Positions 57,800-58,006 of a DNA stretch of 64,000 nucleotides are shown here, one piece after another; position 1 is the first letter of the stretch; each line of letters starts with the position of its first letter. The translations under genes were made by a program, and so were the position numbers. The stretch lies in the NCBI RefSeq assembly GCF_003334815.1, contig NZ_QOWO01000004.1; one strand, written 5' to 3'. Source of the DNA: Escherichia coli. GTDB taxonomy: Bacteria; Pseudomonadota; Gammaproteobacteria; Enterobacterales; Enterobacteriaceae. The notes beneath the pieces are model-generated. The model searched no databases. It saw nothing but the letters and a program-made list of their open reading frames with translations, and was not told the origin of the DNA.

Positions 57800-57824
57800 A
57801 GCCCGATGGATTTATCATCGGGCT
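57800..57824 (-). terminator. Stem-loop just after narP stop (candidate minus-strand/bidirectional terminator)
   Basis: agcccgatg-gatttat-catcgggct 9-bp stem; T-rich on the minus-strand side. Confidence 0.45.
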
Positions 57825-57912
57825 GAGATTTATGACAAACGCAAAACTGCCTGATGCGCTACGCTTATCAGGCCTACGTGGATCGATCAATTTATTGAAT
57901 TTACACAATTTT

Positions 57913-57947
57913 GTAGGCCGGATAAGGCGTTCACGCCGCATCCGGCA
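57913..57947. repeat. REP unit between narP and ccmH
   Basis: gtaggccggataaggcgttcacgccgcatccggca. Confidence 0.7.
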
Positions 57948-57975
57948 TAAACTAAGCGCACTTTGTCAACAGTCT

Positions 57976-58006
57976 AGCCCGATGGCATCACCATCGGGCC
58001 TCTTTT
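57976..58006 (+). terminator. Stem-loop plus T-tract abutting ccmH stop (candidate narP terminator)
   Basis: gcccgatgg-catca-ccatcgggc hairpin followed by ctcttttta. Confidence 0.5.

Follow-up and report, generated by a model that had tools for sequence, protein, structure and literature searches.

The window analysed here is a 64,000-nucleotide stretch of an Escherichia coli contig (NZ_QOWO01000004.1, assembly GCF_003334815.1). Within it the convergent genes narP (57148-57795, + strand; RefSeq annotation of MG1655 2290500-2291147) and ccmH (58006-59058, - strand) face each other across a spacer, with TAA stop codons at 57793-57795 and 58006-58008. MG1655 positions are converted to window positions by subtracting 2,233,352; the spacer is that of MG1655, and K-12 strain BW2952 matches the interval 57700-58100 at 100% identity.

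A hairpin stands at each end of the spacer, on both strands. Hairpin 1 (AGCCCGATGGATTTATCATCGGGCT, 57800-57824), recognized by its sequence, its fold, a terminator scan and a repeat search, is built as AGCCCGATG-GATTTAT-CATCGGGCT and is separated from the narP stop by 4 nt; hairpin 2 (AGCCCGATGGCATCACCATCGGGCC, 57976-58000, with the stem-loop proper at 57977-57999) is built as GCCCGATGG-CATCA-CCATCGGGC and is separated from the ccmH stop by 6 nt. The two have the stem GCCCGATG/CATCGGGC in common, lie 176 bp apart, and differ at four of six loop positions (ATTTAT vs. CATCAC). The repeat search aligns them as a 25-nt direct repeat (57799-57823 and 57975-57999) of 84% identity, 176 from start to start. 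Folded as + strand RNA they reach -17.5 and -17.7 kcal/mol (z = -5.2 and -5.1), and none of 200 shuffles folded as well. The 9-mer GCCCGATGG occurs four times in the window vs. 0.74 expected, three of these occurrences being inside the two hairpins. A previous sequence-only reading of this DNA had given the coordinates of both hairpins exactly, together with their common stem, different loops and proximity to the two stop codons, and had taken them for copies of one terminator; the direct repeat and the single-hairpin alleles described below bear this out.

The interval between the hairpins (57825-57975, + strand) is one 151-bp unit, delimited by indel alignment, and a 150-151-bp unit recurs at 33 other loci. 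It contains every part of a BIME-1 (also called RIB or RIP, and equivalent to the REPIN sensu Bertels and Rainey), which is defined as a z1 REP, an L linker and a y REP (PMC3333891). The y-type REP (GTAGGCCGGATAAGGCGTTCACGCCGCATCCGGCA, 57913-57947, + strand) carries a 5′ GTAG tag and is also detected as an inverted repeat and as a partial naRNA4 match. Facing it is a second REP (TGCCTGATGCGCTACGCTTATCAGGCCTAC in + strand letters, 57848-57877, with its GTAG tag on the - strand), likewise visible as an inverted-repeat arm, which we typed by the z1 consensus. The sequence-only reading had a single REP between the hairpins; the y REP is real, and what had been overlooked is the inverted z1 REP and the fact that a complete BIME-1 fills the whole interval.

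The 35-nt L linker between the REPs (57878-57912, both strands) is conserved across BIME-1 loci. BIME-1 linkers frequently have an IHF site, and a putative one here (GATCAATTTATTG, 57885-57897) has one mismatch to the IHF consensus, which matches 75 times in the window vs. 56 expected and so is uninformative alone. The REPs are bordered by GAGATTTATGACAAACGCAAAACTG (left) and GCGCACTTTGTCAACAGTCT (right), imperfect inverted repeats of each other that are shared with further BIME-1 loci, among them aspC-gloC and entD-fepA. The repeat search and the comparison of loci place the left end of the unit at 57825-57839 (GAGATTTATGACAAA) and its right end at 57962-57975 (TTTGTCAACAGTCT), both on the + strand. 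As terminal inverted repeats, GAGACTGATGACAAA and the reverse complement of TTTGTCAACAATCT match at 11-12 of 14 positions, a relation conserved over loci. Like other BIME-1, the element is extragenic, present as a single copy (there is no tandem array) and situated at the 3′ ends of convergent genes. The published accounts consulted describe REPs and a linker; here we see a unit of fixed 151-bp length, inverted ends, and duplicated locus-specific terminator hairpins flanking it.

An Rfam scan of 57000-58800 gave only sub-threshold, REP-derived matches (naRNA4 with 38 bits vs. a gathering score of 59.5, and, near threshold, ES036/CssrF at 57870-57912 with 35.6 bits vs. 37.6) and no family over the hairpins. 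An 86-aa reading frame (57832-58092) was dismissed, as it crosses the REPs and continues into antisense ccmH. A promoter scan of the spacer found no match, so that an independent small gene between the hairpins is unsupported. Elsewhere in the window, REP-like matches (GCCGGATAAGGCG and variants) are found at 583-612, 4398-4526 (a multi-REP cluster), 20663-20675 and 50738-50750.

Each hairpin has a homopolymer run on its outer side. An A-run at 57793-57799, overlapping the narP stop codon and picked up by the terminator scan, is the U-run AUUUUUA of a - strand terminator; a T-run on the + strand (CTCTTTTTAT, 58000-58009) overlaps the ccmH stop codon. The + strand tail of hairpin 1 (GAGAUUUA) has only 3 U in 8, its U-run being confined to the - strand; hairpin 2 is followed by CUCUUUUU on the + strand, its - strand tail being UAGACUGU. 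In the consensus terminator scan, hairpin 2 with its + strand tail CTCTTTTTAT and hairpin 1 with its - strand tail ATTTTTATTG were called as terminators; on the strand of the gene that it adjoins (tails GAGATTTA and TAGACTGT), neither hairpin qualified. A GC-rich stem-loop followed at once by a U-run, the mark of an intrinsic terminator, is thus found at hairpin 2 for the + strand and at hairpin 1 for the - strand.

Published maps of RNA 3′ ends made in vivo place ends in these U-runs. Supplementary file 1 of Adams et al. (2021, PMC7815308) lists, in three occurrences, a + strand end at MG1655 2291359 (window 58007) labelled "antisense ccmH", inside the T-run, and no end at 22911xx. Supplementary Data 3 of the TRS study (PMC10687069), for which E. 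coli was cultured in LB or minimal EG medium, has the dominant + strand end at 2291357-2291359 (window 58005-58007; signal 0.96-0.99; Antisense ccmH) and a weaker one at 2291178-2291181 (window 57826-57829; signal 0.52-0.53; Primary narP), 2-5 nt past hairpin 1. Its - strand end at 2291146 (window 57794; signal 0.51; Antisense narP) falls on the final U of the U5 run that follows hairpin 1. This end reached significance in some of the libraries only, and expression of the ccm operon is poor under the aerobic growth used. Neither map has a - strand end at hairpin 2 (PMC7815308, PMC10687069).

The sequence-only reading had assigned hairpin 1 to narP and hairpin 2 to ccm, as a module duplicated so that each of the convergent units would own a terminator. 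Each hairpin does lie 4-6 nt from the neighboring stop codon, and there is the "Primary, narP" end just after hairpin 1; however, U-runs are missing from both hairpins on the adjoining gene's strand, the + strand signal is much higher at hairpin 2 (0.96-0.99 vs. 0.52), which has the sole end listed by Adams et al., the only - strand end maps to hairpin 1, and in most E. coli a single hairpin suffices. We consider that assignment unlikely. The published ends do map to the hairpins, as that reading had required, and they are crossed with respect to it. By the published + strand signals, narP transcripts end chiefly at hairpin 2, the distal one; hairpin 1 accounts for a minor end, the product of either weak termination or exonuclease trimming; the end detected in the ccm direction is that of hairpin 1. 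The hairpin nearest each gene, having no U-run on that strand, is at most a weak stop or a 3′-end protection site. Because each gene terminates at its distal hairpin, both mRNAs carry the BIME as a 3′ UTR of ~210 nt, and the two UTRs are mutually antisense, complementary over ~214 nt.

We compared the spacer among 5,426 complete E. coli genomes. The long allele is present in 1,504-1,512 of them (~28%), the lower figure counting genomes with at least 80% coverage of a 401-bp query across the spacer and the higher one those with the junction of hairpin 1 and the element. The other ~72% lack exactly 176 bp, and match the query in two pieces spanning 225 bp rather than 401. Their sequence (TAAAAATAGCCCGATGGCATCACCATCGGGCCTCTTTTTA; four short alleles, including that of O157:H7, read CAATAAAAATAGCCCGATGGCATCACCATCGGGCCTCTTTTTATTT with minor variants) is a 34-bp spacer whose one hairpin is bordered by an A-run and, on its opposite side, by a T-run. 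Only where the BIME is present do two hairpins occur. This answers the strain comparison for which the sequence-only reading had called: the hairpins are not always paired. Their pairing is not a designed module, and accompanies BIME-1 insertion.

Its single GC hairpin lying between the two runs, the short allele has the form of a textbook bidirectional intrinsic terminator, a form that the allele in the window does not have, its A-run and T-run sitting on different hairpin copies. Terminators of that kind between convergent genes were reportedly described by Ju et al. in 2019. That work is cited in 10.64898/2026.03.23.713779. Unlike such terminators, that of the K-12 allele is divided between two copies at a distance of 176 bp; each is half-functional and serves the distal gene, and the 3′ UTRs that result overlap in antisense.

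These observations are very probably explained by one ancestral bidirectional terminator whose whole hairpin was duplicated around an inserted BIME-1, each copy now mainly stopping the distal gene. In the ancestral spacer a single GC-rich hairpin, its A-run facing narP and its T-run facing ccmH, would have acted as an intrinsic terminator in both directions. Insertion of the 151-bp BIME-1, with its imperfect inverted ends (GAGAYTGWTGACAAA), would have left the 25-bp hairpin as a direct repeat on both sides, and each copy would have kept only its outer homopolymer run. Hairpin 2 and the T-run would then form an efficient terminator for transcription in the narP direction, and hairpin 1 with the complement of the A-run one for the ccm direction. 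Two direct copies would also permit precise loss of the element together with one copy.

Relatives of E. coli bear on the age of the event. E. albertii has a long allele in a 212-bp spacer (hairpin 1 TAGCCCGATGAATTTACTATCGGGCT, hairpin 2 GGCCCCGATGGCGTCACCATCGGGCC), and so has the divergent strain E69, where hairpin 2 is partly decayed. E. fergusonii has a 39-bp spacer in which one hairpin with the hairpin-1 loop (TAGCCCGATGGATTTCCTATCGGGCT) is fused directly to the ccmH-side flank. The single hairpin of short-allele E. coli has the hairpin-2 loop, and that of Salmonella is hairpin-2-like (GGCCCGATGGCGCTACGCCACCGGGCC). The loop differences between the copies are not explained by a simple recent duplication and call for an older one, and the E. 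albertii and E. fergusonii alleles do support an old event. The simplest reading would be that insertion predates the split of these Escherichia species and that the loops diverged afterwards. E. fergusonii would have lost the element and one hairpin copy by recombination within the right arm; most E. coli may have undergone a second loss, within the left arm, or their short allele could be the retained ancestral state.

Some further variation was seen at this spacer. In E. coli RMDEC465 (locus L008), the insertion sequence IS621 (IS110 family) occupies ~465-700 of that locus, inside the z1 REP right after ...CTTATCAGGCCT, and hairpin 1 has a mismatched stem (TAGCCCGATGGATTTACCCTCGGGCT). The Salmonella hairpin GGCCCGATGGCGCTACGCCACCGGGCC (L066, L067) and the C. 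freundii sequence (GCCCGATAGCGCTACGCTTATCGGGCCTAC, accompanied by a second REP; L068) look like z-type REPs. The Escherichia "terminator" hairpin at this site may itself have descended from an old REP.

In the repeat search, 49 nt at either end of the spacer align as an inverted repeat. For RNA of 57790-58010, on both strands, one extended 221-nt hairpin is predicted (-92 and -97 kcal/mol, z = -8.9), with hairpin 1 and hairpin 2 pairing arm to arm; as DNA the whole is a long imperfect palindrome. During transcription the local hairpins should form first, before this long fold. An inverted duplication was rejected as the origin of the 49-nt ends, the asymmetric loops at other loci being direct repeats.

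BIME-1 insertions at other loci were collected by scanning one genome per bacterial species for the left end (ATGACAAACGCAANNNTGCCTGATG). This gave 53 loci, from Escherichia species and Pseudocitrobacter, and removal of orthologous duplicates left 33 independent loci with both element ends recognizable. The unit is 150-151 bp long at most of these, and 132-138 bp at four. When 40 nt of left flank were locally aligned with 40 nt of right flank, 12 of the 33 loci scored at least 24, as did 0.7% of mismatched pairs. Direct repeats of 8-30 bp that lie no more than 4 nt from the element on both sides are present at 13 of the 33 loci, vs. 13 of 1,056 mismatched left/right pairs. All but one of the 13 are GC-rich hairpins, each specific to its locus (for example GAGGCGCCGTAAGGCGCCTT, CCGCCGGGGTTACCCGGCGGTG, AGAAGGCTTATCTATGCCTTCT and AAGCAGCCGGAAGGCTGCTT); the left copy has an A-rich stretch on its outer side, and the right copy usually has a T-run there. 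The remaining repeat is the 8-bp GATAGCAT at locus L020, not a hairpin. The other 20 loci show no clear flanking repeat, some having a hairpin on one side only and others none; whole-hairpin duplication is thus frequent, not obligatory. Non-palindromic loops (GTAA and GGGGTTAC) have the same orientation in both copies, which identifies the duplication as direct rather than inverted.

Empty sites with a single hairpin copy were found for three loci. One is narP-ccmH. Downstream of zapB, GAGGCGCCGCAAGGCGCCTTATTTTTT occurs once in strain 3CM, at the place where SCPM-O-B-8794 has hairpin, element and hairpin; the RefSeq complete E. coli genomes have only the empty allele there and no filled one. 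At rutG-ymdF 1,731 genomes are filled, and most of the sampled remainder match over a span shorter by ~185 bp; the one short allele that was read, from MS21324, has a single hairpin. The rutG-ymdF element is found in both orientations among strains, with the hairpin on both sides each time. There (L018 and L071) BIME-1 sits at one target hairpin in an orientation that depends on the E. coli strain, reflecting either two independent insertions at one hairpin or inversion between palindromic flanks.

Direct repeats at both ends of an element, a single copy in empty sites, and terminal inverted repeats are together the pattern of a MITE-like transposable element with target-site duplication. As the empty alleles have a single hairpin and the hairpins are locus-specific, these are target sequence, duplicated in association with the element. 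The alternative that they belong to the mobile element, as long terminal inverted repeats carried between sites, would account for the inverted alignment of the 49-nt spacer ends, for the long 221-nt fold, and for the recurrence of GGCCGGGTTCGGCC beside BIME-1 at several loci in Escherichia sp. MOD1-EC7003. We nevertheless think it extremely unlikely, the flanking hairpins being wholly different among loci while the 151-bp core is constant, the empty alleles at three loci keeping one locus-specific hairpin, and the asymmetric loops showing a direct relation, not an inverted one.

Several observations were made in single taxa. Pseudocitrobacter (L020-L030, L041) has 151-bp BIME-1 with the ends known from Escherichia, their flanking hairpins duplicated too, and the element and its insertion pattern therefore extend beyond Escherichia. 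In MOD1-EC7003 we found tandem arrays of hairpin and BIME-1, with a period of ~170 bp and up to five copies; the array at L048 repeats one hairpin, and those at L049, L051 and L061 interleave GGCCGTTCAGGAAGCGGTC, GGCAGGGTTCGGCC, GCCTCCAAAAGGAGGC and ACGCCACGATCTGTGGCGT. These arrays suggest that a flanking hairpin can travel with the element during amplification or movement. A 184-bp contig of Bacillus coahuilensis m4-4 (L032) consists of an enterobacterial BIME-1 with a flanking hairpin and is almost certainly assembly contamination.

The hairpins could also have been duplicated by something other than the insertion machinery, a BIME having landed beside a hairpin and a second hairpin having arisen later by local duplication, by slippage or by selection for two terminators. 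The loop divergence at narP-ccmH and the loci with a one-sided hairpin fit such a history, and the terminator function of both copies could have been selected. Against this, at 13 loci the repeats stand 0-4 nt from the element ends, in many cases with 100% identity that extends to the loops and to bases outside the stem; the non-hairpin repeat GATAGCAT shares this geometry; and independent later events would not be so regular. We regard a later duplication as quite unlikely, and duplication at the time of insertion remains our preferred reading.

Duplication at insertion would arise if both feet of the target hairpin were cut, one on each strand, and the gaps then filled in. The hairpin would have to be extruded or single-stranded at the moment of cutting. 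A constant unit with inverted ends, a repeat length that tracks hairpin size, and insertion in either orientation do not suit a transposase of fixed stagger, and suggest instead foot-of-hairpin cuts on each strand followed by fill-in. As a tentative proposal, for which we would claim possibility rather than probability, BIME-1 may be a MITE-like 151-bp unit that prefers intrinsic-terminator hairpins, integrates through a cut at each foot, one per strand, leaves a structure-defined duplication of 8-30 bp, and is later excised precisely in either register.

The likeness to MITEs with target-site duplications lies in the short non-coding unit of constant length, the imperfect terminal inverted repeats, the flanking direct repeats and the empty-site alleles. 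Unlike theirs, the BIME-1 duplication is variable in length (8-30 bp) and usually corresponds to a complete hairpin, and this match of duplication length with the hairpin argues for cuts defined by structure, not by distance. REPs have been described as lacking MITE signatures (PMC3184786). Hairpin-recognizing single-strand nucleases are known from the IS200/IS605 family and the REP-associated Y1 transposase (TnpA-REP or RAYT), the latter cleaving single-stranded DNA at C|T beside REP hairpin feet. That cleavage site is similar to a GC stem with T after it, and a GC stem with a T-run would present the C|T motif on both strands of a bidirectional terminator; the REP-associated Y1 transposase would be the obvious candidate enzyme. 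No RAYT gene is found in the 64-kb window. Those systems, however, neither duplicate their target nor possess inverted ends (PMC3333891). The IS200/IS605-type mechanism proposed for REP/BIME is likewise without target duplication (PMC3333891), and the footprint of BIME-1 is consequently at variance with the current model.

As a locus, narP-ccmH is ordinary, its transcript ends having been mapped before; the point of interest is the general rule that it exposes. Excision was reportedly noticed by Bachellier et al. in 1997 (Genetics 145:551), in the words "excisions of a whole BIME-1". If so, indel polymorphism of this element is already known in kind. We found no description of hairpin duplication at BIME-1 in the searchable full-text literature, and it is absent from PMC3333891, PMC3184786, PMC3733652, PMC3116915, PMC3337134 and the 2026 REP preprint; the 1991 and 1997 papers of the Hofnung group may contain an earlier mention of flanking repeats.

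For narP-ccmH, the present results correct the assignment of hairpins to transcripts, and show that a 176-bp element sets K-12 and ~28% of E. coli apart from the rest, making both 3′ UTRs longer and mutually antisense. How REP/BIME sequences move has been an open question for ~40 years, with no insertion footprint given in the searchable literature. A constant 151-bp unit, inverted ends and duplicated terminator hairpins together make a concrete, testable target rule, and a bioinformatic signature by which gains and losses of BIME-1 can be dated and polarized over thousands of genomes. If integration is indeed structure-defined, this would be the first sequence footprint of REP/BIME/REPIN insertion; it would be at odds with the duplication-free IS200/IS605-type model now assumed, and would explain why REPs are found at the 3′ ends of convergent genes.
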